In this document: positions 2,023 to 59,846 of the stretch, one piece after another
Position numbering within the stretch: the first letter of the stretch is position 1
Layout: every line of letters begins with the position of its first letter
The notes under the pieces: model-generated
What the model saw: the letters and a program-made list of their open reading frames with translations, nothing else
The model's database searches: none
Told to the model about the DNA's origin: nothing
Translations under genes and position numbers: made by a program
NCBI GenBank assembly: GCA_014685065.1
Contig: GCA_014685065.1_3930.1
Strand: one strand, 5' to 3'
From: a phage
Length of the DNA stretch: 64,000 nucleotides

Positions 2023-2101
2023 TTAATCACCTCATCAGCCAAGATGGTGAGAATACCCATAAAGAATATTAACACCATCTTAACAATCAGTCAACAAGGG
2101 A

Positions 2102-23391: not shown

Positions 23392-25008
23392 TCAACGTCT
23401 AAGCCCCTCATATGGGTTTCCTCTCACTAAATCTGTGTGAGCACCCATTGATGGTGGCTTGAATAATTTAACTTCGTTAAGACTGTTGAAAGCATCACTG
23501 GTAGCATCCACTTGGTCATCTTTAGTTTTACCGTCACCACAAAAGCCTTCAAGTTCTTGAAAGTAAGCTTCATTCCAACTACCTCTCAAGACTTTTACAA
23601 GTCCAGCTTCAGAAGCAGCAGAAAATCCCGCAAAGCGGGTAACTTTATCTTTATTTGTTGGTTTGGCTCTTGCTCGATAACCTTTCTCGGCAAGTTTCCT
23701 GATGAGGGATGTTGCGTAGGATTTACCAGCAGCGCCTGGGTCTTGAGGGATAAAAATACCAGTTCGCTTACCGTCACTTTCAGCAGTCAAATTAATTTGT
23801 GTTTCGACTCCAGAGGGTCTATCTCTAAATCTTACTACATCAATGATATAATAGCAACCGTCTTTTTTAGATTTACCCATCTTAACACCTGCTGTCCAGT
23901 CTGGATTAGGGTTAATCTCAGATGGTAAAGTTGCTGCTAAGTCCCATGCTCTAACATCAAATACATCTTCTGGGAGTGAATCAACAATTTCACACCATTG
24001 TCTTTGCCAATAGTTTGAACCTTCTGCACGAGCCTTCCAGTTACCGAAACGAAGTCTTGCAACGTTTACAGGAGTGTTGTTTTCCAACTTACCACGGTAC
24101 TTAGGCTCTAAGAAGTCAAGGATTGGGTTATCATCAATCGTACCAGAAATAAAGGTGTATGTTTGAGGAATCTCAAGGGGGAACATTTCAAGAATCTTGT
24201 CTCTCTCCCAATCAGAAACCATCACGCCATCGTGCATTACATACCAACGAATACGACCACATTTTTCAGGGTCTGGGTAGCCTTCTTCATCTAAGAATGG
24301 CTCTACCCAATCGTAAATAAAGTGGTCTCTGTCTGGGTTCATGGAAATCTTCATGTATGAATCGCCTTCAGCACCAGAACGTAGACGGGTTTGTAGGTAT
24401 GAAATCTGTGAAGCAGAGAAGTGTGTACCTTCGTCAAAGTAAATAGCTGAGTATTCAATACCCTGATGACCTTCAGCGTGCTTTTCAAGTTCTAGGTAGG
24501 TAAACTTGATAGTTGCCCCAGAAGGGAATGTGATAGTCATTTTCTGCTCGTGAGGAATCCCACCAAACTTACCAAATAGTTTCTTTGCAGCAGGCCATAA
24601 ACCACCTTGTAACTGTGTTGTATTTCGACGGAAATATACAGCATTATAGTTAGGGTCTTCAATAAATCTTAAAGAGTCCATTAACAATGCGGCAGTCTTA
24701 CCAGCACCAGCAGCACCACCATAGAGAACCAAGTCAGCATTAGTATTTAAAAAGACCTCTTGAGAACCCGGCTGAGGGGCTACATAGTTCTTATCAGTCA
24801 TCAATTTAAAGATAAGGCGAACTTGGTCTGGTGTGTATCTTAATAAAGTCAGAATTTGAGTTGGAAGGAATTTAGAGGGGTCTTTACCGAATGATTTAAT
24901 AATTTCTTTTACTTCATCAGAAAGCCCCAACTCTCCAGCTAGGACTTTCCTAACATCTTCCACTCGCTTCTGCTTAACAGCATTTAAGTCCATTAAGCGC
25001 CTCCGCAA
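23392..25008 (-). CDS. terminase large subunit
   Basis: 538 aa; Walker A (LVLYGGAAGAGKTAALL), Walker B-like (IYFDEGTHF) and C-terminal nuclease acidic motifs. Confidence 0.85.
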   Translation of the reverse strand: MRRRLMDLNAVKQKRVEDVRKVLAGELGLSDEVKEIIKSFGKDPSKFLPTQILTLLRYTPDQVRLIFKLMTDKNYVAPQPGSQEVFLNTNADLVLYGGAAGAGKTAALLMDSLRFIEDPNYNAVYFRRNTTQLQGGLWPAAKKLFGKFGGIPHEQKMTITFPSGATIKFTYLELEKHAEGHQGIEYSAIYFDEGTHFSASQISYLQTRLRSGAEGDSYMKISMNPDRDHFIYDWVEPFLDEEGYPDPEKCGRIRWYVMHDGVMVSDWERDKILEMFPLEIPQTYTFISGTIDDNPILDFLEPKYRGKLENNTPVNVARLRFGNWKARAEGSNYWQRQWCEIVDSLPEDVFDVRAWDLAATLPSEINPNPDWTAGVKMGKSKKDGCYYIIDVVRFRDRPSGVETQINLTAESDGKRTGIFIPQDPGAAGKSYATSLIRKLAEKGYRARAKPTNKDKVTRFAGFSAASEAGLVKVLRGSWNEAYFQELEGFCGDGKTKDDQVDATSDAFNSLNEVKLFKPPSMGAHTDLVRGNPYEGLRR

Positions 25009-25014
25009 ATAGAA

Positions 25015-25215
25015 TTATTCAGAGTCTGTAGCAGTCTCTTCTTTCTTAACTTCGAATTTAGCATCAACAGCATCAAGAAGTGCATCCATAGATGCCTCTT
25101 TAATATCAATACCTGTTGCTACAGATAATCTGTCTGCAATTGCCATGATAGTGTTCTGCATAAATTCCAGCTTTTTGTTAGCTTCATAAAGTTCTTTATA
25201 AACGGTCTCGCTCAT
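25015..25215 (-). CDS. hypothetical protein upstream of terminase (small-terminase candidate is unproven)
   Basis: 66 aa acidic ORF; SD GGAGAAAACATA before ATG. Confidence 0.4.
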   Translation of the reverse strand: MSETVYKELYEANKKLEFMQNTIMAIADRLSVATGIDIKEASMDALLDAVDAKFEVKKEETATDSE

Positions 25216-25437: not shown

Positions 25438-25513
25438 TGGAGAATCCGAAGGGACTCGAACCCTTATAAACCTGTTTTGCAGACAGGCACATAGCCATTT
25501 CTGTCACGGATTC
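25438..25513 (-). tRNA. tRNA-Cys (anticodon GCA)
   Basis: Hand-folded cloverleaf: acceptor GAATCCG/CGGATTC, anticodon loop CTGCAAA, T-loop TTCGAGT, CCA encoded. Confidence 0.65.
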
Positions 25514-25517
25514 AAAT

Positions 25518-25610
25518 TGGAGGAAGATACCAGACTTGAACTGGTACACCGATTTCTCAGCTACTGGCAGTTTAGCAAACTGCTCCCTTACCTTTTAGGG
25601 TTAATCTTCC
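25518..25610 (-). tRNA. tRNA-Ser (anticodon GCU), class II
   Basis: 93 nt; acceptor GGAAGAT/ATCTTCC, anticodon loop TTGCTAA, long variable arm, T-loop TTCAAGT, CCA encoded. Confidence 0.6.
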
Positions 25611-25611
25611 A

Positions 25612-26346
25612 TTATTTCTGTAATGCGTTCTTCATTTCTGGTGTTGCAATAGTGTCAATTACACCAGTTTTACAGGCATCATCAAACCAGTCTGGTAAGA
25701 TACCTGCTAAGAACCCATTGATATTCGTTTTAAGGTACTCTGCAATAAGGGCAGCTTCTTCTTCAATCATCTGCACAACTTCATCTGCATAAGCTGTAAT
25801 CTTTGAGATACCTTCATTAATCTTACTGACAGCTTGGTTAGCTAAATCAGAAACAGTATCAAGACCCTTGTCAATAGCGTCTTGTAAGTCACTTAATACA
25901 TCGTTAACACTCTCTAGTGTACTGTTAATCGTATCAATAGCTTTTTGACCATATTCTGTAGCAACACCCATAATACCACTGAACGGTGTACAACCAACTT
26001 GTTCTCCTGCTGCACCCATAACATTGGAATATCCATTTGCTACCTGCATACGTGATGAAAACTCATCAATAGATTTTTGACCGTAGTCTGTCAGGGTCTT
26101 AGTAGTTGCTGTAGTGCTTGTAAGGCTTGTTGTAAAGCTGTTTAGAAGGACTGTTGTAAGTCCAGCAGCAACAAGTTTCTCCTGCATTGTAGGGTCTGTT
26201 ACAGAACTAATAGAGCTTACAAGTGATGTAGAAGCAGCTACGGTTCCACCGAGAACTGCTGCACCAGTAATAAGTGGGTTAGAAAACCCTTTACCGGTTT
26301 TTAAGAGATTAAAAATCTCCTTACCTTGTTCTGTCATCTCTTTCAT
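25612..26346 (-). CDS. hypothetical protein within tRNA cluster
   Basis: ORF track start 26409 overlaps tRNA-Phe; start moved to internal ATG (MKEMTEQ...); Ser/Thr-rich middle, helical C-terminus. Confidence 0.45.
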   Translation of the reverse strand: MKEMTEQGKEIFNLLKTGKGFSNPLITGAAVLGGTVAASTSLVSSISSVTDPTMQEKLVAAGLTTVLLNSFTTSLTSTTATTKTLTDYGQKSIDEFSSRMQVANGYSNVMGAAGEQVGCTPFSGIMGVATEYGQKAIDTINSTLESVNDVLSDLQDAIDKGLDTVSDLANQAVSKINEGISKITAYADEVVQMIEEEAALIAEYLKTNINGFLAGILPDWFDDACKTGVIDTIATPEMKNALQK

Positions 26347-26362
26347 TAAGCACCTTTGAAAT

Positions 26363-26439
26363 TGGTAGTCCAGTGGGATTTGAACCCTCTTCTCATGTTT
26401 TTCAGACACGCGCTTTAACCATATAAGCTACTTGGACTA
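26363..26439 (-). tRNA. tRNA-Phe (anticodon GAA)
   Basis: Acceptor TAGTCCA/TGGACTA, anticodon stem CGTGT/ACATG with loop CTGAAAA, T-loop TTCAAAT. Confidence 0.55.
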
Positions 26440-26444
26440 TAAAT

Positions 26445-26520
26445 TGGGGTGACCTACGGGATTTGAACCCGTATAGACCATGTTCACAGCATGGGTCATT
26501 GCCATTTATGATAAGGCCAC
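26445..26520 (-). tRNA. tRNA-His (anticodon GUG)
   Basis: Acceptor GTGGCCT/AGGTCAC, anticodon loop CTGTGAA, T-loop TTCAAAT, CCA encoded. Confidence 0.65.
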
Positions 26521-26551
26521 ATTTAAGGACTCTCGTAAGAACCCTTAGAAG

Positions 26552-26627
26552 TGGCAGCGGCATAAGGATTTGAACCTTAATAGGACAGCTTCAGAGACTG
26601 TTGCATTGCCAGTTATGCTATACCGCT
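26552..26627 (-). tRNA. tRNA-Gln (anticodon CUG)
   Basis: Acceptor AGCGGTA/TGCCGCT, D-stem GCAT/ATGC, anticodon loop CTCTGAA, T-stem TAAGG/CCTTA, CCA encoded. Confidence 0.6.
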
Positions 26628-26632
26628 AAATT

Positions 26633-26711
26633 TGGTACTCCATATCGGATTCGAACCGATACATAACACAGATTTTAAGTCTGGCCTCTCTGCCAATTGG
26701 AGTAATGGAGC
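26633..26711 (-). tRNA. tRNA with anticodon UAA (Leu-type) but class I architecture
   Basis: Acceptor GCTCCAT/ATGGAGT, A73, anticodon loop CTTAAAA, perfect T-arm ATCGG-TTCGAAT-CCGAT; short variable region. Confidence 0.45.
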
Positions 26712-26713
26712 AT

Positions 26714-26788
26714 TGGCGGGGGATGTTGGAATTGAACCAACTTCTTCGATTTCAAAGACCGAGGTTTTAACCTTGTAAACTAATCCCC
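26714..26788 (-). tRNA. tRNA-Gln (anticodon UUG)
   Basis: Anticodon stem TCGGT/ATCGA, loop CTTTGAA, T-arm GTTGG-TTCAATT-CCAAC, CCA encoded. Confidence 0.55.
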
Positions 26789-26797
26789 TTTAAATCT

Positions 26798-27355
26798 TTA
26801 CTTTCTCAGTGGATGAATAAAGAATGCCAACATAACTCTTTCCCTTGAGAATGCTCTTTCTTCTGGGACAACACTTTTTAGTTTCCATCCAATATAAATT
26901 CTCCAGTAAAACTGTTTACCAAAGACTTTAATTGATGGGATAAAAGCGAATAATCCCCAAGCATTACTGTTCCACATTAGGAGATAACCTGTCTGATTAT
27001 CTTCAGGGTCAGAACTTACGTTGATATTACCTTTCCACTTAGTAACATCTTTTACATCTCTTCCTAATACATGGTAAGAGAAGTTATAAGCTTTGTTTCT
27101 CCAGAGCCATCCGACTCTCTGCATGTAGACACCCAGCTTACCAATCTTTCTAATCTTAGCCCATCGTTCGATATGACCTTCGTCACCATCAATTGGATTG
27201 TCATATGTCTCCATCCATCTAAATCCGAAAGGTAAGTGGCCTTTCTTCTCACTGTAAAATGGAACTACGAAAGGTGCTAAGATAACTGCTAAGGTTGCTG
27301 CTAATGGTTCTAGCAAAGCTAGGAAAATCCATGAAGCATATTTTAAATATCTCAT
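26798..27355 (-). CDS. hypothetical membrane protein within tRNA cluster
   Basis: 185 aa; N-terminal hydrophobic segments, Trp-rich; sits exactly between two tRNAs. Confidence 0.5.
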   Translation of the reverse strand: MRYLKYASWIFLALLEPLAATLAVILAPFVVPFYSEKKGHLPFGFRWMETYDNPIDGDEGHIERWAKIRKIGKLGVYMQRVGWLWRNKAYNFSYHVLGRDVKDVTKWKGNINVSSDPEDNQTGYLLMWNSNAWGLFAFIPSIKVFGKQFYWRIYIGWKLKSVVPEERAFSRERVMLAFFIHPLRK

Positions 27356-27364
27356 CTAAATAGC

Positions 27365-27440
27365 CTCTTTAAATTGGCGCAGGATAAGGGATTCGAACCC
27401 CTATTAACAGCTTCGTAGACTGTTGCTCTATCCATTTGAA
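27365..27440 (-). tRNA. tRNA-Arg (anticodon ACG)
   Basis: Acceptor GCAGGAT/ATCCTGC, anticodon stem ACAGT/GCTGT, loop CTACGAA, T-loop TTCGAAT, CCA encoded. Confidence 0.65.
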
Positions 27441-27445
27441 CTAAT

Positions 27446-27523
27446 CCTGCAAAATTGGTGTTCCAAGACGGATTCGAACCGTCACTAGTACAAGGTTTGA
27501 GCTTGCATCCTCTGCCAATTGGG
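27446..27523 (-). tRNA. tRNA with anticodon CAA (Leu-type), class I architecture
   Basis: Acceptor GTTCCAG/TTGGAAC, A73, anticodon stem GCAAG/CTTGT, loop CTCAAAC, T-arm GACGG-TTCGAAT-CCGTC. Confidence 0.45.
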
Positions 27524-27524
27524 A

Positions 27525-27599
27525 TACTGGAACATGGTACTCACTAAAGGACTTGAACCTTTTTCTTCATCTTGTAAGGGTGGTGTTTTACCATATAAA
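27525..27599 (-). tRNA. tRNA, probable Val (anticodon UAC); weak anticodon stem
   Basis: Good acceptor, D and T arms (AAAGG-TTCAAGT-CCTTT); loop CTTACAA but anticodon stem has two C/A mismatches. Confidence 0.35.
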
Positions 27600-27604
27600 C
27601 TAAG

Positions 27605-27690
27605 CGAGTATGAAAGAGGTCTGAAGTTGTGCCGCTAACTCAACTCCGTGGAATTTGTTACGGTCTTCAGTTGACACCAGCGGTCTTTCA
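27605..27690 (-). repeat. structured spacer element (CUGAAGACCG family, copy e)
   Basis: Closing inverted repeat AGAGGTC...GACCTCT; internal CTGAAG...CTTCAG stem; contains ACGGTCTTCAG box shared with the other spacers. Confidence 0.4.
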
Positions 27691-27694
27691 CTTG

Positions 27695-27771
27695 ACCTCT
27701 GAATTGGTGCTGCTCACAGGACTCGAACCTGCATTTCCATCCTTACAAGGGATGTGTAATAGCCAATTATA
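27695..27771 (-). tRNA. tRNA-Thr (anticodon UGU)
   Basis: Acceptor GCTGCTT/GAGCAGC, anticodon stem CATCC/GGATG, loop CTTGTAA, CCA encoded. Confidence 0.65.
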
Positions 27772-27777
27772 CGAAAG

Positions 27778-27852
27778 CAGCATTGTTTGGAGCATCCAGA
27801 GGGAATCGAACCCTCAACCTCAGTTTGGAAGACTGTAATTTTCCCGTTTAAA
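27778..27852 (-). tRNA. tRNA-Gly (anticodon UCC)
   Basis: Acceptor GCATCCA/TGGATGC, anticodon loop CTTCCAA, T-arm GAGGG-TTCGATT-CCCTC. Confidence 0.6.
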
Positions 27853-27858
27853 CTATGG

Positions 27859-27934
27859 ATGCACTAATTGGTGGAGAAGCAGGGAATTGAACCCTGTACT
27901 TAAGTTTGCAAAACTTATGTTTTAACCATGTAAA
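27859..27934 (-). tRNA. tRNA-Ala (anticodon UGC)
   Basis: Anticodon stem TAAGT/ACTTA, loop TTTGCAA, T-arm CAGGG-TTCAATT-CCCTG, CCA encoded. Confidence 0.6.
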
Positions 27935-27940
27935 CTACAT

Positions 27941-28016
27941 CCCCAATGTTTGGTACAGGTGGAGGGAATTGAACCCATCGTCTTACTGATTAAGAGTCAG
28001 CCGCATAACCATTTTG
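27941..28016 (-). tRNA. tRNA-Lys (anticodon CUU)
   Basis: Acceptor GCAGGTG/CACCTGT, anticodon stem GCTGA/TCAGT, loop CTCTTAA, CCA encoded. Confidence 0.55.
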
Positions 28017-28023
28017 CTACACC

Positions 28024-28100
28024 TGCATTAATTTGGTACACCTAGAGAGATTCGAACTCACACTGAGCAGATTCTAAGTCTGCTGCCTCTACCAATTGGG
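28024..28100 (-). tRNA. tRNA with anticodon UAG (Leu-type), class I architecture
   Basis: Acceptor GCACCTA/TAGGTGT, A73, anticodon stem GCAGA/TCTGC, loop CTTAGAA, T-loop TTCGAAT. Confidence 0.45.
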
Positions 28101-28356
28101 CTATAGGTGCATTAAATCTTTTTAGAGAACTTCTAAGAACCTAAGCAACAAGGTTCCACAACAAGCTGTAATAACCTTAGAAGCCCTCTAAAAAGACCTA
28201 ATTTGGTCTTTGCATAGTCTTGTTTAATCCGGTGACTAGAACCTTTGGAGAGCTTGATATTATCTCTTCTCCGTGACACCTACTAGGTGCTTTACTGTGC
28301 GTGTACGACAATACACGAGGGATACCAAAGCAACATCCGAATGAAGCTTGGCTTTA

Positions 28357-28446
28357 AATCTTATTAGGCGGTAAGTAAAGGAGTCGAACCCTCACCGTAT
28401 CTCTACAGTGGCAACTGTTTTCAAGACAGTTTGGCTACCATTAGCC
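28357..28446 (-). tRNA. tRNA-Ser (anticodon UGA), class II
   Basis: ~90 nt; acceptor GGTAGGT/ACTTACC, perfect anticodon stem ACTGT/ACAGT, loop CTTGAAA, long variable arm; only CC of CCA encoded. Confidence 0.55.
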
Positions 28447-28459
28447 GCTACCTACCCCT

Positions 28460-28542
28460 AATAAGACTTTGGCATGGGACGGAGGAGTTGAACCACTTTG
28501 AAACGGTTTTGGAGGCCGTTGCTCATGCCTTAGAGTCTTAAC
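28460..28542 (-). tRNA. tRNA-like gene, possible Trp (anticodon CCA); atypical D-region and T-stem
   Basis: Perfect acceptor GTGGGAC/GTCCCAT with CCA; loop CTCCAAA; D-loop over-long and T-stem with mismatches, may be degenerate. Confidence 0.35.
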
Positions 28543-28684
28543 ATCGTCCCACACTATAATTCGAAGCTTACCGTATTTTCACAACACTGTAAAGCCCCTT
28601 CTCAGATTATTTACATGTTCTGGAAAACATGAGATACAGACCACCTCCTTACACGGAGACCCGATAAGGTCGTCTAAGCAATCT

Positions 28685-28761
28685 GCTAACTATTTGGCAC
28701 ACCCTACAGGATTCGAACCTGTAACTAACGATTTAGAAGACCGTTGCTCTATCCAATTGAA
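28685..28761 (-). tRNA. tRNA-Arg (anticodon UCU)
   Basis: Acceptor GCACCCT/AGGGTGT, anticodon stem ACGGT/ATCGT, loop CTTCTAA; D-arm near-identical to tRNA-Arg(ACG). Confidence 0.65.
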
Positions 28762-29008
28762 CTAAGGGTGCATTAATCTTTAAAGACTCTCTTAGAAAGC
28801 CCTTAAAGATGCCCACCTTATTAATCATACCGTGGGCGAGTACGCCAAATTCTTTGATGAGGGATTGGAAGACCTCACTGGTGTTTAGCCTATCAAGCTA
28901 CTGCCAGAAAAACATTGTCGTTTGCATTTATTTTAAATTTGCAAAATAGACGCTACGCAACGAAAACTAAGGTTACTATAAAGTGGTCACATCTCAATGT
29001 CAACAACT

Positions 29009-29084
29009 TTATTGAAATTGGTACTGTGAGAAGGATTCGAACCTTCTGCCTTTCGGTTATCAGCCGAATGCACATCCATATGTG
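29009..29084 (-). tRNA. tRNA-Ile (anticodon GAU)
   Basis: Acceptor GCTGTGA/TCACAGT, D-stem GCAC/GTGC, anticodon stem TTCGG/CCGAA, loop CTGATAA, CCA encoded. Confidence 0.65.
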
Positions 29085-29087
29085 CTT

Positions 29088-29573
29088 TCACAGCATTGTT
29101 ACCCCTTCGTGTACCTCTCTGTGGCAATTTGCACACAGTAATACACACTTATCAACTTCAGACTTCATTACCTCTATAGAGAAGTGTTTTTGTCCTACTG
29201 TGAAGTCCTTTGTATTAGGGTCTAAGTGGTGAAACTCTAAAGCCTTTATGCACTTATTGTATCCACAAATTGAGCAACAACCACCTTTGTAATCAACTAA
29301 AACCCTCTTAAGTTTGTCACGAGACTTTTTAACGTGTTGTGACTTCGCTTTCTTTTCTTCATCGGGGTTTTTGTATTGTTTCAGAATACCATTTGAAATA
29401 CATTCATCACAATACTTTCTTGATTTTGGTGTTTGTTTTCCACATGAATGACAAGAGCCTTCTTGTCTTCTTTTTGGATGACTCTTGTTGTTTACCCTTG
29501 CAGCACAAGAGCGTGAACAATATTTTCCGCCTTTAACGGCTTTGTTGTCACAATCTTTATTAGCACAAAACAT
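29088..29573 (-). CDS. HNH homing endonuclease with N-terminal Cys-rich zinc-finger repeats
   Basis: C-terminal HNH motif (CCSICGYN...LEFHHLDP...CVLLCANCHREVH); four CxxC-type pairs N-terminally; ORF-track start at 29732 would overlap tRNA-Met so start set at MFCANKDC. Confidence 0.7.
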   Translation of the reverse strand: MFCANKDCDNKAVKGGKYCSRSCAARVNNKSHPKRRQEGSCHSCGKQTPKSRKYCDECISNGILKQYKNPDEEKKAKSQHVKKSRDKLKRVLVDYKGGCCSICGYNKCIKALEFHHLDPNTKDFTVGQKHFSIEVMKSEVDKCVLLCANCHREVHEGVTML

Positions 29574-29589
29574 AATATCACCAACGAAT

Positions 29590-29666
29590 TGGAGGTTCAG
29601 ATGGGAATCGAACCCACATTCATAGGGCTTATGAGACCCCTGCATTACCTTATCTGCGACTGAACC
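29590..29666 (-). tRNA. tRNA-Met (anticodon CAU; elongator vs initiator vs Ile2 unresolved)
   Basis: Acceptor GGTTCAG/CTGAACC, anticodon stem GGGGT/GCCCT with G-U ends, loop CTCATAA, T-loop TTCGATT. Confidence 0.6.
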
Positions 29667-29670
29667 ATAT

Positions 29671-29746
29671 TGGTAGAAGTGGAGGGATTCGAACCCATCG
29701 CCTGTCAGATTAAAAGTCTGCCGCATCACCATTCTGCTACACTTCC
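29671..29746 (-). tRNA. tRNA-Lys (anticodon UUU)
   Basis: Anticodon loop CTTTTAA, T-arm similar to tRNA-Lys(CUU), CCA encoded. Confidence 0.6.
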
Positions 29747-29752
29747 ATTAAA

Positions 29753-29894
29753 ATTATCTTTGTAGATAAGCTATCCAGACTTGCTTAAGGTCTGTAGCGA
29801 TGTGCCTTGTTGGGTTTAAATCTAGAATTTACCCTTTCACTCTTTGTGGTCGCATACTCACAGGTAAGCTTAATAACTTATCTACAAAGATAAT
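29753..29894 (-). repeat. perfect 18-bp inverted repeat pair flanking a 106-bp core (hairpin RNA or MITE-like insertion)
   Basis: ATTATCTTTGTAGATAAG at 29753-29770 and exact reverse complement at 29877-29894; core holds CAGAC-TTGCTTAAG-GTCTG hairpin. Confidence 0.5.
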
Positions 29895-29895
29895 T

Positions 29896-30028
29896 ACCAG
29901 ACCGTTGTTTATCATCTTAAGTGCTACCATTACACCAACTCGACATCTGCCGAGTGAAGGAATCGAACCTTCGCCTTTTCTTTACCGGAGAAATAGATTG
30001 TTTAAGTTTTGCTGTAAACGGTCTTCTG
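29896..30028 (-). repeat. spacer element copy a (CCAGACC...GGTCTTCTG family) containing tRNA-like T-arm and D-arm in permuted order
   Basis: Closing stem AGACCGTT/AACGGTCT; internal GGCGAAGG-TTCGATT-CCTTC T-arm-like hairpin followed by GAGTTGGTGTAATGGTAGCAC D-arm-like segment. Confidence 0.4.
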
Positions 30029-30040
30029 TAAATTTGTTGA

Positions 30041-30116
30041 GCCAGACCAAGTTTTAAATTTTCAAAATTAAATTGGCTTGAAATTTCATACATTCTTGCT
30101 GTATTTGGTCTTCTGC
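30041..30116 (-). repeat. spacer element copy b (CCAGACC...GGTCTTCTG family)
   Basis: GCCAGACCAAG...TTGGTCTTCTG closing inverted repeat; conserved ACAGCAAG box in minus sense. Confidence 0.4.
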
Positions 30117-30202
30117 TCCTTTAAAGAATACTCGTAAGAACCCTTTAAGGGAGGGGCTAAATAGCCCTCTCAAAACATCATCTTGAAATACTTATTATAA
30201 TT

Positions 30203-30279
30203 TGGCGGTTACGAAGGGATTTGAACCCTCATCATCTCCCGTGACAGGGGAGTATTTTAACCAGTTAAACTACATAACC
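30203..30279 (-). tRNA. tRNA-Asp (anticodon GUC)
   Basis: Anticodon stem CTCCC/GGGAG, loop CTGTCAC, T-arm GAGGG-TTCAAAT-CCCTT, CCA encoded. Confidence 0.65.
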
Positions 30280-30285
30280 TTTATT

Positions 30286-30373
30286 TGGTGTGCCGTGTAG
30301 GAGTCGAACCTACCGAGTCTCAATGACAAGGGATTTACAGTCCCCACCGCTACCATCTACGGGATAACGACAC
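30286..30373 (-). tRNA. tRNA-Tyr (anticodon GUA), class II
   Basis: 88 nt; acceptor GTGTCGT/ACGGCAC, anticodon stem GGGGA/TCCCT, loop CTGTAAA, long variable arm, T-arm GTAGG-TTCGACT-CCTAC. Confidence 0.6.
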
Positions 30374-30442
30374 ATTTAATTTCTATTCAGGCTAAGGACT
30401 TGCACCTTACAAATCGGTGAGCAATCGCTTCTCTCCTAAATT

Positions 30443-30519
30443 TGGCGGTTAGTCAGGGATTCGAACCCTGTGCCATTCGCTTAACAGGCGACCGCACATA
30501 CCTTATGTGCTTCCTAACC
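30443..30519 (-). tRNA. tRNA-Asn (anticodon GUU)
   Basis: D-stem GCAC/GTGC, anticodon loop CTGTTAA, T-arm CAGGG-TTCGAAT-CCCTG, CCA encoded. Confidence 0.6.
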
Positions 30520-30529
30520 TTAATACATT

Positions 30530-30591
30530 GCCAGACCGTGTTTTTTCTTTTATCCGCAAAAAGTATTTTGTTGCTGAATACGGTCTTCTGC
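30530..30591 (-). repeat. spacer element copy c (CCAGACC...GGTCTTCTG family)
   Basis: GCCAGACCGTG...ATACGGTCTTCTG closing inverted repeat with ~45-nt structured loop. Confidence 0.4.
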
Positions 30592-30596
30592 AAAAT

Positions 30597-30672
30597 TGGA
30601 GGCGGGTGCAGGAGTCGAACCTGCCGATACCATGCTAATGAGACATGTGAGACGCCCTTTCTCTATACCCGC
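30597..30672 (-). tRNA. second CAU-anticodon tRNA (Met/fMet/Ile2 candidate)
   Basis: D-stem GAGA/TCTC, anticodon stem CATGT/GCATG, loop CTCATTA (unusual U at position 37), T-arm GCAGG-TTCGACT-CCTGC. Confidence 0.5.
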
Positions 30673-30683
30673 AATTCTTAATG

Positions 30684-30759
30684 ACCAGACCAAATCTCTT
30701 CTTTGTCCGATTTACCTTCAGATGAATAAGATTAAGTTTGCTGTAATTGGTCTTCTGTC
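30684..30759 (-). repeat. spacer element copy d (CCAGACC...GGTCTTCTG family)
   Basis: GACCAGACCAAA...ATTGGTCTTCTG closing inverted repeat; conserved ACAGCAAACTTAA box in minus sense. Confidence 0.4.
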
Positions 30760-30764
30760 AAAAC

Positions 30765-30842
30765 TGGCGTTCCAGAAGGGATTTGAACCCTCAAATATCC
30801 ACTTTGAAAGAGTGGTGACTTTACCATTTTGTCTACTGGAAC
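30765..30842 (-). tRNA. tRNA-Glu (anticodon UUC)
   Basis: Perfect acceptor GTTCCAG/CTGGAAC and anticodon stem CCACT/AGTGG, loop CTTTCAA, CCA encoded. Confidence 0.65.
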
Positions 30843-30849
30843 ATTAATT

Positions 30850-30929
30850 TGGTCTCCGTTGAAGGATTTGAACCCTCGACCCCTTGCTCCCAAAGCAAGT
30901 GCTGCTAAACCAAACTGAGCTAAACGGAG
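30850..30929 (-). tRNA. tRNA-Pro (anticodon UGG)
   Basis: Anticodon stem CTTGC/GCAAG, loop TTTGGGA; 3' half resembles bacterial tRNA-Pro (GGGGTCGAGGGTTCAAATCC); CCA encoded. Confidence 0.6.
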
Positions 30930-30954
30930 ATAAACTTTTCAAACTCTATGTAAC

Positions 30955-30986
30955 CACTTTAACATTATTTTTTAGTGGTTGTCAAG
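30955..30986 (-). promoter_or_regulatory. candidate sigma70-type promoter for the tRNA operon
   Basis: Minus-sense TTGACA-N17-TTAAAG with AT-rich upstream tract, ~25 nt before tRNA-Pro 5' end; AACCACT/AGTGGTT inverted repeat overlaps it. Confidence 0.35.
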
Positions 30987-31042
30987 AACTTTTTTAAAAT
31001 ATTTTTCAGTATCTTAGAAAAGCTCTCATTTCGTTTCTATGT

Positions 31043-31082
31043 AGAACATATTAAAGGGTATCAAACACATTGTCAATACCCT
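31043..31082. terminator. hairpin AAAGGGTAT...ATACCCTTT (terminator-like on plus strand)
   Basis: 9-bp perfect arms, T-run follows on plus strand; lies just downstream of the vWA gene stop. Confidence 0.3.
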
Positions 31083-31094
31083 TTTTAAAACTTT

Positions 31095-32510
31095 TTACCA
31101 GATGTAACGGTCAATCATTACTGCTTTGAGCATTACGCTGATTGGGTCAAACTTCTCACCACCAAGCAGAGCTTTTAAAGTGGCTGGAGAGAACCCTGAT
31201 ACCATTGCTACACCATTATCCTTAACAGATACTTCGCAAGTACCATTACGGTTTGCTAAGTACCAGAATACCAGTTGTGGCATTTTGTATCCAGCTTTTT
31301 TGTACTTACTACGAATCGCTTCAAAGTTTGTACGACCATTAGCTCCATCAACCTGATTGAACTCCATATCAGAGAAGATAATAAGCTTACTTGGCATATC
31401 TTTCTGAGTCAAGTTGTTTCTCTTACCTGTTTCAAGAATGCGGTCAAAAGCTGCTTGTAAGTTAGTTGAGCCATATTCAACGTGTCGCATCACCTGACGA
31501 TGACGGTTTCGTAAATCACCACTCAGTTCGATGAAGTGAGGGTTTGTCGAATAAACCATCAACTCATTCTTAAAGCAACCTGTATTGCGTTCTGCTACAT
31601 ACAAGGCAAGTGATACACCAATATCCAGAGCAGTAATGGAGCCAAAATTCACCCAAGACATTGAACTTGATACATCAGACATACACAAGATGTTTTCACC
31701 TTCTGCCATCCAGTTTGGTAGTGCTTTCCACTGCTCATTAGCAACATCTGCATTACCATACTTGACAGATTTAATCACATCGTATGGGTAAACAGCACCA
31801 GCGTTAATCTTAGTCTCACCTTTTGATAAGGACTCGATGTAAGCTTTGTAACGCTCTCCATCTTTACGGTTAAACAGTTTTTGGTAACGTGCAGCAGCAA
31901 GTGAAGGAATCTTACTGTAGTCAATCTTACCAAACTCATTAGCAGAGATTTTTTGCTCAACTGTATCAGATAGTGCAGACAACAGTGTGCGATACTCTTT
32001 CTCACTCAAGTTTGCAAACTTGCAGAAACGTTTTACAAACTGTTTGTGACGTGGTTTTACTCGTGGTAACCACTTAGCTGCTAAACCTGCTGTTGCAGGG
32101 TCTAGTAAAGCTGCTTCTAAATGTTTGAAGGCATCTGTCTCGAAACGAGTACCTACAAAGATTTTGAAGTCATCAAAGCGACCAAGCTCTGCAATCTTAT
32201 CCATAATGCGAAGAACCTGCGTAGGCTCTAAAACTTTATCTTCAATCGCTTGAAGTAAAACAGTTCGGAAAGCTTTACGCTCACCCATACCTTCTCGTAC
32301 ATCTCGCATATGCAGTAAAATACGAACTGCAACATCAACATCCTCATGCAAAGCTTTGTAGAACAAGTCTGGTAAGATTTCTACATTGCTACGGCTGGAA
32401 CCAGCAGCTTTGTAAAAGTCCACAAGAGCAGACATTGATGAAGTATGGTTTACAGCACCATTTTCAGTTCGACCTGCATGAAGGTGCGCATGTTTAAATA
32501 ATTCGCTCAT
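31095..32510 (-). CDS. von Willebrand factor A (vWA) domain protein with helical N-terminal domain
   Basis: 471 aa; MIDAS-like DxSxS motif (MSDVSSSMS) and downstream Thr/Asp positions (GSTNL, IIFSDMEF) typical of vWA. Confidence 0.55.
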   Translation of the reverse strand: MSELFKHAHLHAGRTENGAVNHTSSMSALVDFYKAAGSSRSNVEILPDLFYKALHEDVDVAVRILLHMRDVREGMGERKAFRTVLLQAIEDKVLEPTQVLRIMDKIAELGRFDDFKIFVGTRFETDAFKHLEAALLDPATAGLAAKWLPRVKPRHKQFVKRFCKFANLSEKEYRTLLSALSDTVEQKISANEFGKIDYSKIPSLAAARYQKLFNRKDGERYKAYIESLSKGETKINAGAVYPYDVIKSVKYGNADVANEQWKALPNWMAEGENILCMSDVSSSMSWVNFGSITALDIGVSLALYVAERNTGCFKNELMVYSTNPHFIELSGDLRNRHRQVMRHVEYGSTNLQAAFDRILETGKRNNLTQKDMPSKLIIFSDMEFNQVDGANGRTNFEAIRSKYKKAGYKMPQLVFWYLANRNGTCEVSVKDNGVAMVSGFSPATLKALLGGEKFDPISVMLKAVMIDRYIW

Positions 32511-39573: not shown

Positions 39574-40027
39574 AGAAGTAGTGCAAAGAGCAATGCTTGA
39601 CAACTCAACTAAAGATGAGATGTACAAAGAGATTTGTGATAAGTTGAATTGCTCAAGACATGCTGCTAAGGTTCTTGTACATTGTTTTATCTGGGAATGC
39701 TCAGAAGCTTATATGAAACACGTAGCTTTTGAGAGTTCTCATTTACTCGGTGATGCAAAAATAGGTGTAGCACTAAAAGAGCCTGAGATGAAAACAGTAC
39801 CTAAAGTTGGTAATGTGTATAAACTAAAAAATTTTATTACAGGCGAGATTGTTGCAGAAGGTGAAGTGCAACAGGTTTATCATGATGGTAAATATCTGTT
39901 TAAGATATTCGAGTATGATAGTCGTTACAGACACTTATGTGGTATTACATTTTTAGTTTCAGAGGATGACATCATCAAGAACAATAGTAATAAATTCGCA
40001 GTACCAGAATATCAAGTTTTACGATAA
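39563..40027 (+). CDS. hypothetical protein
   Basis: 154 aa ORF overlapping upstream gene end. Confidence 0.5.
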   Translation: MKIKEVVQRAMLDNSTKDEMYKEICDKLNCSRHAAKVLVHCFIWECSEAYMKHVAFESSHLLGDAKIGVALKEPEMKTVPKVGNVYKLKNFITGEIVAEGEVQQVYHDGKYLFKIFEYDSRYRHLCGITFLVSEDDIIKNNSNKFAVPEYQVLR

Positions 40028-40589
40028 TGGTGTGATAGATATGGAAAAAGATAACTTAAAAGAAGTTGAAGGTAACTACTTAGTACTTGACTGGAAGGAT
40101 GTTCGGGAAGCACTCTCCGAAGAAAATCTTGACTGGTTCGAACAAATTATCTTTGCAGTACGGCATAACCGAGAAGTTGAAAATGGTAAAGAGCCACTTG
40201 AAGGAATCTTTGTAGAAAGGTCTTATCCATTCTATGAAGACACTTTGCAGAAAGTTAAAATGTACTTTAAACAGAAGAACCGTAAAGTGGTCACTATGGT
40301 ATCTCTTGGTGGACAGAGTATGTCTGTGATGGAAGATATCAACCCTAAGAGACCGAGTAAAGGCGTTTGTATAAAAATCACAGGTCATGAAGAGTATATC
40401 TCAGTGAATGACTTTAGTGCATTCTGTAATGGTTCTGCTGTCTTTAATGGGTTTCACTATGATATCCGAGTGTACCCAATCAAGGGAGATGATATCATGA
40501 TGCAGATATTCGATAACAATAATGGATTTACTCATTTTTATCAGACAACTAAGTCATCCCTAAAAACAGTTCTGGAAACACTGATTTAA
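39966..40589 (+). CDS. hypothetical protein (start uncertain; alternative ATG near 40041)
   Basis: 207 aa by ORF track, but first 25 codons overlap upstream gene; last gene of plus-strand operon. Confidence 0.45.
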   Translation: MTSSRTIVINSQYQNIKFYDNGVIDMEKDNLKEVEGNYLVLDWKDVREALSEENLDWFEQIIFAVRHNREVENGKEPLEGIFVERSYPFYEDTLQKVKMYFKQKNRKVVTMVSLGGQSMSVMEDINPKRPSKGVCIKITGHEEYISVNDFSAFCNGSAVFNGFHYDIRVYPIKGDDIMMQIFDNNNGFTHFYQTTKSSLKTVLETLI

Positions 40590-40597
40590 AATATCTT

Positions 40598-40632
40598 AAG
40601 AGCCTCCTTAATTGGGGGCTTTTTAATTTTTT
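40598..40632 (+). terminator. rho-independent terminator ending the plus-strand operon
   Basis: AGCCTCC-TTAATT-GGGGGCT hairpin followed by TTTTTAATTTTTT. Confidence 0.6.
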
Positions 40633-40639
40633 ATAAAAT

Positions 40640-42200
40640 TTTATCGGTTGTCCCAACCTCTGGGTCACCATCATATGTGAACAAAATATCTATCCTTCTT
40701 AACAACCTTTTTAATCTTACTCTCTATATAGTTATATAGTACTATATAGTATCTTAGTATCTATCTAGTGGTCTTAATAGCCCTCTATATAACCCTTCTA
40801 ACTAGCCTTCTAACAAGCCTTCTTAACAACCTATACAATCACCTTAACCATCTCTCTATACCCTCTTAGAAGCTCCTATACACCTCTTAATCTCTAGGTT
40901 AGATATGTTACCCTCTATAGGTGTTCACTAGGTATTACTAAGCCTCTATATAGACTGTTTTAACAAACTTAACAGGAATATCTTTACAGGCCTTATCTCA
41001 CAAGGTCTAACACGGTACTAACAAGGTATCTTATAAGCCTGTTTCTACCTGTATTTTTAAAAGACTGTATAGGTAATTATTCAGATTTTTAAAATTTTTA
41101 TAAAATAGGACTATCAAGTCATTTTTTAGGGTCTTTGAAGGAACTCAAAAATATCTGATTAGGATGTATATCTGCTTGGTAGCCCTTAACATCCCTGTAA
41201 CATCCCCTTTGCAGAATTTTAAAATATCCTTAACAATCTCTTAACAACTCTCTCAATCTCTTAACATCTCTTCAGAGGTCTTAACAGATTCTTAACATAA
41301 CTAACAAGGGCTTAACAGTTTCTTAACAGACGATACATGGTCTTTATAGTCTCTTAACAGATGACTAACAAGAGCTAACAAGTTAATTTTTAAGAGTTAT
41401 TTTGTTAAGATAATTAACAAGTTCCTAACAAGTGTTTAATCTTTTTAACAAGCTATTAACATGGTCACTATCTCTTTTCTTATCGTTCCCTTTCCTTTCT
41501 TAGTGAACTCTTAAACATACCTCTTAAAAGCTCTCTATAGCTCTGTATAGCCCCTTTTAAGCCTCTTCCTAGTAATTACACCCCAACTGTACAGATAGCT
41601 CTTTATAGGGCTTTACAGGAGCTTTTAAGGCTATGTCAAAGACTCTTACAAGGCTTTTACGTGGTCTTAACAGAGATTTAACAAGGGGCTAACAAGTTGC
41701 TAACAAGTGCCTTAAAAGCATAACTATGTAGGGATTGTTAAGAAATTGTTAAGAGAATGTTAAGGGGGCTAGCATTTACGTAACTTTGAAGATACATTTA
41801 CGTAACTTTTAAGCTACTTCAAAGTAACTTTATAACCCCTATAACATACTTTTTAGACACTATCAAGCCTTTTTAGATATTCACAAGAATACTAACGAGA
41901 CGATAAAGCTTACACCCTTATAAGATTCTTTTAAGTCTCTGGGAAGCTTTATAAAGGGCTTTTTAGGGTGAGTTAATGCAATCCCTTAAGTTAGGTTGAT
42001 AAGGCTGTTATAGAGCTTTATAGAGCGTTTAAACGGTTGCCCTTCCCTTTCGGGTTATGGGCTTATATTTAAGTTGATTTGATAAAAGGTTATAGAGTAG
42101 ACTATAGAGTTATTGCTTTTAAGGTATGAGATAGGTTCTATCGAATCAGTGGGAAGATTCTGGAAAGGAAAGGAAAGGGATTGTATAAGGATTCAATAGA
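40640..42200. repeat. ORF-free repeat-dense region (iteron-like CTTAACA arrays, TATAGAG boxes, tandem 15-mer)
   Basis: No ORF of 60 aa or more in 1.6 kb; at least 14 CTTAACA/CTAACAAG heptamers in 41221-41460, several ~11 bp apart; CCTCTATA(T)AG boxes; CATTTACGTAACTTT tandem at 41773/41795. Confidence 0.6.
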
Positions 42201-42202
42201 CG

Positions 42203-42230
42203 TAAAAAAGCCCCTTTAAATAGGGGCTGT
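42203..42230 (-). terminator. rho-independent terminator ending the minus-strand early cluster
   Basis: Perfect palindrome AGCCCCT-ATTTAA-AGGGGCT followed on minus strand by UUUUUU. Confidence 0.6.
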
Positions 42231-42266
42231 TCAGGTATCTGGGGCTATTTAGCCCCGTTGCGTCGA

Positions 42267-42515
42267 TTAGTTGTAACCTTGTTTATTGTAGTACAGGGAA
42301 ACAATCAAGTCACCCCAGTAATGATAGTGATGCTCGTCGTTTAATGCCTCTTTTACAGCATCTTTCCAGAAGTCATCAGTAGGGTTATAATCTGGAATAA
42401 CTTGTTTGATAACTGTCTTCACTAATGAAAAACACTCATCAGTTCCACCAATATCGAATTTAACGTCCAGAGTATAACAGCCATAGGCATTGACAGTTGC
42501 GCGGATAGTTGCCAT
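42267..42515 (-). CDS. hypothetical small protein (early cluster)
   Basis: 82 aa; preceded by type-A promoter/leader cassette and SD TAGGAGAT. Confidence 0.55.
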   Translation of the reverse strand: MATIRATVNAYGCYTLDVKFDIGGTDECFSLVKTVIKQVIPDYNPTDDFWKDAVKEALNDEHHYHYWGDLIVSLYYNKQGYN

Positions 42516-58064: not shown

Positions 58065-59846
58065 TTAAAGCTGCTTGTCAATATTATTTCGAATATCACC
58101 AAGCGTTGTGTAACCGAACTGCTCAGAGTCACTAAAGACTAAACGTAAAGCACAAGCTGGGTGGTCAAGTGCATCTGCAAAACTCTGGAATCCATAGCCA
58201 TCTACAGCTTTCAGCTTATCACCATCCCACATAGGTGCTACACCACCAAAGGCAGATTTCTTAACACCACTATCTGTTTTAGGGTCTTTTGCAAGCATAA
58301 TCTCTTTACCACCAATGCTTGCAAGAGTTGCTTTGACAGCAAATGCAAAGGTGTCACGAGTCATGTACTGGTAAGTGTAAGAGCCTACACCAAACACTAC
58401 GTTAGAGCTTGCAAAACCCATTTCATACAGACGCTTCAGGATTTCGTTTGCACGTTCCAGCGTGATAGAGTCGCCATAGATAAGTCCGATATGCTCATCC
58501 AGTACCTTAAACCCTTTAGAGTTAATAGTTCCCCCAAAGATGCTGTACAGTGTCTTAATAGTTCCATCAATCTCCGCTACAGGGCGTGTTACAACGTTTG
58601 CAGAGCCAACCATATAAGCATTCTTCAACATCACTGTATCAGCAACTTCAAAGTCTTCTCTGTCAACAACCATTTCGTAGCCTTCTGACAGTAGCCATCC
58701 AGCAATACCATAGTTGACGTTTTCAAGCTTCATGTTCAGAACAGCATTCAACATTGTGTCACTGGCTTCCAGCTTGCTTAGGTGCTCGTAATAAGCCTTC
58801 TTAGCACATTCTAAGTGGATTGCTTTATAACCTGTGACAATATGTACAGGGTCTCCAGAGTCAGGACGAATTACCAGTTTACCGTCACGTTCCATAATTT
58901 CTTTACGAAGTGCTGGTAAGATTTCTGACACAGTTCTCCAGAAGTTATAAGTATCTGAAACAATACTTGCAATACCAGTTGGGTAAGTTTCTGTTAAGAA
59001 ACGACGGAAGGTTTGTAACTCACCTTTAAAGCGTCTTTCTTCTTCAATCAACTCATTACCACCTTCCCAAGCAATGTTTGCACACATTACAGAGTGCTCA
59101 GTGGCTGGTACAGAGCTACCAATATCAGAGATTGGGTAAGACTGTCCATAGATTCGTTTAGCCGTATACACAGCAGGGAAGCTATCAGTTCCTTTAAAGC
59201 TGGTTAAGTGACCTACAGCATTAAATGCGTCATCAGTAAAGCCGGACATACCACGCATAGCAAAGTCGTGGCACTGATAAGGTAAATGTAGGTCGTTGTC
59301 ACAAGTAAGGTCAGCCCACTTCTTACAGATGCGTTTGTAATGCAATGCAATAGTTGCAATGGTACAAGCTTTCCAAATCTCAGCAGAGAAAGCATCTTCC
59401 AGATAACCTGCTACCCAATGGAAACCTGAAACAGTGTTCTGGAAAACAATCATCGGAACACGCATAGGGACAACTGTGCCTTCTTCTACAGCGTATACTT
59501 CAACTGGTAGATAACCTAAGTCGTGAAGTGCTTCCCAATGCTCTCGACCGATAGCATCTTTGCCCAGAACACCATTCATGACTTCTAAGATTTCGTCAAT
59601 TGCTTCTTTTTTGTCACGTTCAAAGAACGTAGCATTCCAGTGGTCTATCAAGTAATCTTTAACGAAACGTTGAATACCAAAAGCTACTACACCATCAATT
59701 GCTAAGGGGCTGTTAAACCATTTGTCACTACGTGGTGTCAGGTTGAACATCAAGTACTCTGTTGCACTAGGGTACTGGTAAACATGACCAGATTTGTAAG
59801 CATCCGCGTTTAAACCTGCTGGTACTGCATAAAGTGATTTAGTCAT
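58065..59846 (-). CDS. nadV: nicotinamide phosphoribosyltransferase (NAMPT/NadV family)
   Basis: 593 aa; N-terminal DAYKSGH...YP motif and length typical of NAMPT; adjacent to PRPP synthetase. Confidence 0.7.
   Translation of the reverse strand: MTKSLYAVPAGLNADAYKSGHVYQYPSATEYLMFNLTPRSDKWFNSPLAIDGVVAFGIQRFVKDYLIDHWNATFFERDKKEAIDEILEVMNGVLGKDAIGREHWEALHDLGYLPVEVYAVEEGTVVPMRVPMIVFQNTVSGFHWVAGYLEDAFSAEIWKACTIATIALHYKRICKKWADLTCDNDLHLPYQCHDFAMRGMSGFTDDAFNAVGHLTSFKGTDSFPAVYTAKRIYGQSYPISDIGSSVPATEHSVMCANIAWEGGNELIEEERRFKGELQTFRRFLTETYPTGIASIVSDTYNFWRTVSEILPALRKEIMERDGKLVIRPDSGDPVHIVTGYKAIHLECAKKAYYEHLSKLEASDTMLNAVLNMKLENVNYGIAGWLLSEGYEMVVDREDFEVADTVMLKNAYMVGSANVVTRPVAEIDGTIKTLYSIFGGTINSKGFKVLDEHIGLIYGDSITLERANEILKRLYEMGFASSNVVFGVGSYTYQYMTRDTFAFAVKATLASIGGKEIMLAKDPKTDSGVKKSAFGGVAPMWDGDKLKAVDGYGFQSFADALDHPACALRLVFSDSEQFGYTTLGDIRNNIDKQL

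Follow-up and report, generated by a model that had tools for sequence, protein, structure and literature searches.

The 64-kb window (64,000 nucleotides of phage DNA, contig GCA_014685065.1_3930.1) holds a gap of 1.7 kb at positions 40590-42266, delimited by the stop codons of a plus-strand gene (39966-40589) and a minus-strand gene (42267-42515). The gap is treated here as the likely junction of the chromosome ends, composed of a direct terminal repeat (DTR) and two subterminal segments and filled with short boxes around a TAACA core. In a nucleotide comparison 257 phage records matched the region at 78-93.5 % identity, and nearly all of them belonged to the genera Felixounavirus or Mooglevirus (Ounavirinae), including Felix O1, wV8 and UAB_Phi87. 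The large terminase, a Mu-type portal, 26 tRNA genes and an NAD-salvage gene of this group are also encoded in the window, and on these similarities it is classified as the genome of a Felixounavirus, a Felix O1-like myovirus. The longest open reading frame (ORF) of the gap has 41 aa. Among the ORFs of at least 30 aa, those touching the region were located at 40549-40674 (minus strand, 41 aa) and 40768-40869 (plus strand, 33 aa), in accordance with an earlier note on this DNA that had seen no ORF of 60 aa or more. Stop codons number 169 per kb in the gap and 124 per kb in the window as a whole. Both gene blocks end at the gap with intrinsic terminators: on the plus strand a hairpin with a T-run (40598-40632, hairpin 40598-40623) closes the left block at the same place as annotated in AYO145A, and on the minus strand a terminator (42228-42209) with a second hairpin (together 42209-42256) closes the right block, as annotated in AYO145A and Mijalis. 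The description of the gap as convergent and terminator-bounded, also given in the earlier note, thus holds, and according to the Felix O1 paper the transcription units 97-131/1-23 and 40-24 converge at this place.

The gap divides into a left subterminal segment of 588 bp, a DTR of 592 bp (41178-41769) collapsed to one copy, and a right subterminal segment of 497 bp. The DTR was delimited by alignment with relatives whose records hold both chromosome ends. Its boundaries read ...ATATCTGCTT/GGTAGCCCTTAACA on the left and TGTTAAGGGGGC/TAGCATTTACGTAA on the right, the slash marking the edge of the repeat. For the felixounavirus Pr103Blw, PhageTerm gave two terminal repeats of 581 bp (PMC8303462), which are annotated at both ends of the record (1-581 = 87841-88421). 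The record of Citrobacter phage HP1, a Mooglevirus, carries an annotated repeat of 570 bp at both ends (1-570 = 88766-89335). Aligned to the window, both end copies of Pr103Blw and of HP1 start and stop at the same bases as the boundaries given above. The left boundary box GTATATCTGCTT/GGTAGCCCTTAACA (41166-41191, repeat start at 41178), placed by alignment with these end copies, was identical in 16 relatives, and GTATATCTGC is also kept in the Erwinia phage phiEa104. The DTR boundaries coincide with the start or end of at least 12 independent records, namely ECP2307, D4 (vB_EcoM_D4), ZX4221, H12, NJ12, GE_vB_7A, SeKF_63, ECOH1, SPJ41, EcSzw_1, Pr103Blw and HP1. The record of EcSzw_1 begins at the left boundary box on the 41178 side, while SPJ41 breaks at the opposite boundary. 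Biochemical evidence is available for UAB_Phi87, for which time-limited Bal31 digestion and run-off sequencing yielded a terminal repeat of 608 bp (PMC4837284). The same sequence is present at both chromosome ends in Pr103Blw, HP1 and the Erwinia phage vEam_W_28. In the window a single DTR copy joins the end-proximal gene blocks, with homologues of the first and the last Pr103Blw gene on its two sides; one copy is expected, since an assembler collapses the two end copies. By homology with the relatives, the locus would have fixed, non-permuted ends, and the boundary boxes in the window are identical. Judged by this homology the locus is a terminal-repeat junction, and the alignments demonstrate that the ends of the relatives lie exactly at two invariant boundary boxes. 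The position of the DTR as such is already known for the group from the published ends of relatives.

Short boxes are strongly enriched in the region. TAACA occurred 29 times on the plus strand of 40590-42266, with 2.8 copies expected from the rest of the window (Poisson p ~7e-20); CTTAACA was present 13 times (0.34 expected), TAACAAG 11 times (0.23 expected) and CTCTATA six times (0.15 expected). Of 100 TTAACA matches in the window, 24 sit in 1.07 kb of the region. Counted on both strands, the TAACA core is a short motif that recurs at least ten times in or beside the terminal repeat, with 25 of 35 copies inside the DTR and a consensus of about (C/T)T-TAACA-(A/G/T). The main array (41187-41461, plus strand) consists of 17 forward boxes of the type (C/T)T-TAACA-(A/G) and one reverse box, with distances of mostly 11, 20 or 31 bp. 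A part of it had been noticed from the letters alone as a crowd of CTTAACA-type boxes in 41221-41460, where we count 15 forward boxes and one reverse box with a TAACA core (41221-41461). Four forward TAACA(A/G)G boxes with a spacing of exactly 11 bp follow at 41668-41707 on the plus strand, and three reverse boxes (TGTTAAG, at 41736-41758), 11 bp apart, lead on the minus strand (41735-41769) up to the right boundary TGTTAAGGGGGC/TAG. A second TAACA-rich bin at 2001-2500 was rejected as ordinary coding sequence, and TTTATAAAAT, present only twice in the window and both times in the region, was not significant.

Twelve of the 28 spacings between neighbouring TAACA sites are exactly 11 bp. For the 21 forward sites in the DTR the phase coherence peaked at a period of 10.25-10.5 bp (R = 0.64, P = 0.001 versus random placement), but a long-range helical register was not significant (P = 0.23) when the 11-bp runs were kept intact and shifted relative to each other. 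The phasing therefore reflects local tandem spacing and does not demonstrate a single DNA face across the array. Of the earlier claim that the repeats are helically phased, the local 11-bp spacing is retained and the common face is not claimed.

The two edges of the repeat are mirror images. The left edge has the sequence GCCCTTAACA, and GCCCCCTTAACA is read from the opposite strand at the right edge; the orientation of the boxes is inverted between the two DTR ends. As a consequence of this flip, both virion ends, read inward, begin with GCCC(CC)TTAACAT and have the next box 11 bp on. The sign of the GC skew changes at about 41700-41750, matching the change in orientation.

For conservation the window was aligned with 18 relatives of 77-94 % identity to it. 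The region is conserved as much as the flanking accessory genes and less than the core morphogenesis module (95-99 %). Within it, the fraction of relatives agreeing with the window was 0.951 at motif-core positions versus 0.842 at other non-coding positions (p = 1.5e-17, a value that is overstated because related genomes were treated as independent). DTR indels larger than 3 bp measured 10, 11 (five cases), 22 (four cases), 23 (two cases), 24, 26 and 48 bp, and the boundary-to-boundary lengths across phages were 569, 570, 579, 591/592, 601/603, 613/614, 623/625, 638 and 659 bp. The indels of 11 and 22 bp together with the length steps of about 11 bp indicate that whole 11-bp units are gained and lost.

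The boxes extend to a third genus. For Erwinia phages (genus Kolesnikvirus) no more than about 100 bp, located at the left boundary, can be aligned with the region, yet these phages possess a syntenic ORF-free gap of 1.43 kb (phiEa104 locus 2080-3508). Inside this syntenic gap vEam_W_28 has a sequence of 442-444 bp that is present at both ends of its record in copies of 99.3 % identity. The box TCTTAACA, with its TAACA core, occurred 31 times in the Erwinia gap, where 21 of the copies belong to the 444-bp DTR, versus 8 times in 3.7 kb of flanking sequence; again forward boxes are placed towards the left edge and reverse boxes towards the right edge. The outer boxes of phiEa104 are GAGAAG and TTAGAAG, non-inverted, in place of CTCTATA and TATAGAG. 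Since these outer families differ, the TAACA core is the deeply conserved element. The comparisons demonstrate that the TAACA boxes are under selection, tied to the DTR and its edges, and conserved across three genera.

Further elements surround the arrays. The left unique subterminal segment (40590-41177), non-coding and in virion DNA located just inside one DTR copy, contains five CTCTATA boxes (40722-40944), a 12-bp tandem of the CCTTCTAACAAG type (40794-40829) and seven forward TAACA cores; its mean conservation to the window was 0.907 in the 18 aligned relatives. At its right side, 45-120 bp outside the left boundary, lies an AT-rich block with 21 % GC (41055-41135), whose core of 19 bp (41090-41108) was invariant in 19 aligned genomes, the window and its 18 relatives. 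This block could be a bend, a site for a host factor or an unwinding element. The middle of the DTR is occupied by an imperfect palindrome (41519-41635) with CTCTATAG, CTGTATAG and CTTTATAG boxes; its DNA fold z-score of -2.9 was reached by one of 200 shuffles, and the strands gave about -2.6 to -3.0. The right unique subterminal segment (41770-42266), likewise non-coding, carries four TATAGAG boxes (42009-42103), the reverse complement of the CTCTATA boxes on the left. Both families were found where the earlier note had placed them, CTCTATA-type boxes in 40700-40960 and TATAGAG boxes in 42000-42110, and so was its tandem 15-mer, CATTTACGTAACTTT at 41773 and 41795. Both positions are part of a 22-bp tandem with 2.7 copies (41773-41831) that starts 4 bp outside the right boundary and is kept in Pr103Blw and the Mooglevirus HP1. 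Two perfect palindromes TTACGTAA (41776-41783 and 41798-41805) stand 22 bp apart inside this tandem, and the 64-kb window has only one other copy. This pair is likewise kept in Pr103Blw and HP1 and may be the target of a dimeric DNA-binding protein.

We consider it likely that the region is the concatemer junction, made of one collapsed DTR of about 0.6 kb and two subterminal segments, and that the boxes act in cis in end cutting and packaging. Either the packaging machinery itself or a DNA-binding accessory protein would occupy the boxes and thereby label the junction on concatemers produced by replication. With boundaries that mirror each other, one nuclease could act at both edges of the repeat, on opposite strands, and the DTR would afterwards be duplicated through strand-displacement synthesis, leaving a copy at both ends of each packaged chromosome. 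Cutting followed by duplication through strand displacement is the general model for phages of the T7 type. The two terminators may insulate the junction from transcription. The large terminase subunit (TerL), encoded on the minus strand at 23392-25008, matches Terminase_6N/6C (Pfam). Following the tree of PMC4837284, its putative clade is that of enzymes that generate terminal repeats. A sequence relative of TerL was not found in the PDB. The gene has a TTG start codon, and about 95 N-terminal residues are outside the Pfam domains (locus 23392-25215). The sole ORF directly upstream of TerL has 66 aa and is named 'holin' in some records. Among the three readings offered in the earlier note, the packaging or terminus site was supported, as the ends of relatives map here with base-for-base homologous, invariant boundaries. 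A headful pac site was not: the relatives have ends fixed at two defined boundaries rather than permuted ends, and a fixed-end DTR junction is therefore not a headful pac site as in P1, SPP1 and P22.

Several observations weigh against the junction reading or limit its precision. A small terminase subunit was neither annotated nor detected near TerL or beside the region in Pfam, PHROGs and the annotations of other records; the Pfam and PHROGs searches at these two places, also aimed at other DNA-binding proteins, yielded only unknown-function families. The missing long-range register and the inflated significance of motif conservation mentioned above belong here as well. The two boundary boxes of UAB_Phi87 are separated by 614 bp, 6 bp off the published 608 bp, and the boundaries in the Erwinia record are 2-3 bp off the homologous positions; on account of both differences the exact cuts are uncertain by a few bases. 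The ends of this particular phage are assigned through homology with its relatives. A more specific proposal, which we regard as tentative and rather doubtful, is that the TAACA boxes form a loading platform for a putative sequence-specific protein, either a new, cryptic type of small terminase or a protein that pairs or protects the ends, and may double as an origin. If true, this would be a mode of end recognition unlike the T7 and lambda paradigms.

Repeats of this kind may also be iterons of a replication origin, alone or besides a role in the DTR, with an initiator that binds TAACA and melts the AT-rich block. The many short repeats with local 11-bp spacing fit such an origin, as do the terminators that keep the region free of transcription and the partly invariant block 41055-41135, a potential AT-rich unwinding element with 21 % GC that adjoins the array. 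In some phages with terminal repeats the origin is located near the ends. The AT-rich block nevertheless lends weak support, because AT-rich bends occur in packaging sites too. A search of the region for DnaA boxes found none, and neither a replication-protein domain nor a recognisable initiator gene was detected in the flanking genes with Pfam and PHROGs; thus the origin proposed in the earlier note received no positive support. Eight flanking or candidate ORFs matched only families of unknown function in these databases, which could still hide an initiator. Replication data for the group were not found in the searched literature. The coincidence of the arrays with the DTR and the flip of orientation at its edges are a pattern that an origin does not predict, and we judge this explanation unlikely. 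Still less probable in our view are boxes that bind a regulator, a nucleoid-type or an end-protection protein unrelated to cutting, such as a shield or pairing factor for the ends after injection, or a silencer. The identical box arrangement at both virion ends, read inward, would be compatible with end binding; separate box families in the unique flanks (CTCTATA/TATAGAG here, TTAGAAG/GAGAAG in the Erwinia phages) and the palindromic TTACGTAA pairs just outside the DTR also fit this reading. A candidate protein is lacking, however, and promoter-like sites were not in excess (10 versus 7.8 +/- 2.6 in shuffles), leaving nothing obvious to regulate.

Finally, the repeats might reflect non-coding RNAs or very small proteins encoded by the region itself. 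In favour are its large size and conservation and the mildly negative fold z-scores of some sliding intervals. A structured non-coding RNA is contradicted by the Rfam search, in which the sole match at a permissive threshold was one sub-threshold hit over a terminator, and by the fold z-scores, which were low only at the terminators and the DNA palindrome and there equal on both strands. Against small proteins stand the absence of an ORF above 41 aa and the density of stop codons (169 versus 124 per kb), and the missing promoter excess speaks against either product; this explanation appears very improbable.

Most Felix O1-type records leave the 1.7-kb gap blank or hold spurious small ORFs there. 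Short 'hypothetical protein' ORFs of 25-50 aa are annotated inside the junction in JH2, UAB_Phi87, Meda, L27 and others; these annotations are probably spurious because the repeats are stop-rich and show no conservation as ORFs. The genome papers of Felix O1 and wV8 do not discuss the gap, and the text on the Bas63 knockout screen, as far as searched, contains no finding on it. A Felix O1-type junction of 87 % identity was also observed at 135357-137078 of GU169904.1, a 147-kb record named Staphylococcus phage SA1; this record is probably chimeric or mislabelled. We recommend the label terminal-repeat junction for this gap in Felix O1-type genomes, which would allow genomes to be opened at their true ends. 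Felix O1-type phages are widely used in typing of Salmonella and E. coli, in biocontrol and in therapy. Binding studies and mutagenesis could target the conserved boxes, the mirror-image edges of the repeat and the TTACGTAA pair, and these elements may also aid the design of packageable vectors.

Two other loci of the window deserve mention. The 26 tRNA genes on the minus strand (25438-32510) are preceded by a gene for a 471-aa DUF2828/DUF7788 protein. In a preprint on the relative Bas63, the gene upstream of the tRNAs (g130) is described as Ro60-like, with the suggestion that some 'tRNAs' may be Y-RNA-like partners; g130 is probably the counterpart of the 471-aa protein. The ORF 58065-59846 encodes a nicotinamide/nicotinate phosphoribosyltransferase-like protein, an enzyme of NAD salvage. 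Its candidate counterparts are the NAD+-synthesising g79 and g80 of Bas63, which are reported in the knockout screen to counter several NAD-depleting defence systems.

The DTRs of Felixounavirus, Mooglevirus and Kolesnikvirus (608, 581, 570 and ~443 bp) occupy a homologous locus with identical boundaries and the same flanking gene blocks. For the repeat of this group the searchable literature gives only its length and does not describe box arrays, inverted ends or 11-bp length quanta. As far as this literature shows, the box arrays, the inverted edges, the 11-bp quanta and the conservation across genera are thus undescribed features; current understanding is not overturned by them. Among more distant systems, the pac site of P1 has hexamer repeats, four on one side and three on the other side of the cut, and is used for headful packaging with permuted ends. 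The clusters of a motif beside the cut are similar, as four forward and three reverse boxes are found here in the final 100 bp of the repeat, next to its right boundary, but the ends are fixed instead of permuted and the cut is beside the cluster, not within it. Short iterons are known from origins such as the ori/crr octamers of P4 and the ori of SaPI. These share with the junction a motif of 6-8 bp in many copies near an AT-rich block, whereas here an adjacent initiator or helicase-primase was not found with Pfam and PHROGs and the arrays coincide with mapped ends. The closest likeness is to T7, whose sequence was checked directly and has about a dozen CCTAAAG heptamers with 13-bp spacing beside the 160-bp repeat and further copies inside. 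Both phages have a fixed-end DTR in a non-coding junction, with a heptamer repeated at least a dozen times, inside the repeat and next to it, at near-helical spacing. A relatedness to the T7 repeats was not found, as motif (CTTAACA versus CCTAAAG), spacing (11 bp versus 13 bp) and placement differ: the T7 arrays sit for the most part directly outside their repeat, but here 25 of 35 boxes are inside, and the repeat of this phage is about four times longer. T7 has the small terminase subunit gp18, whereas none is detectable here. The arrays are thus best regarded as analogous to those of T7, not homologous, and by this analogy the junction would work most like that of T7.

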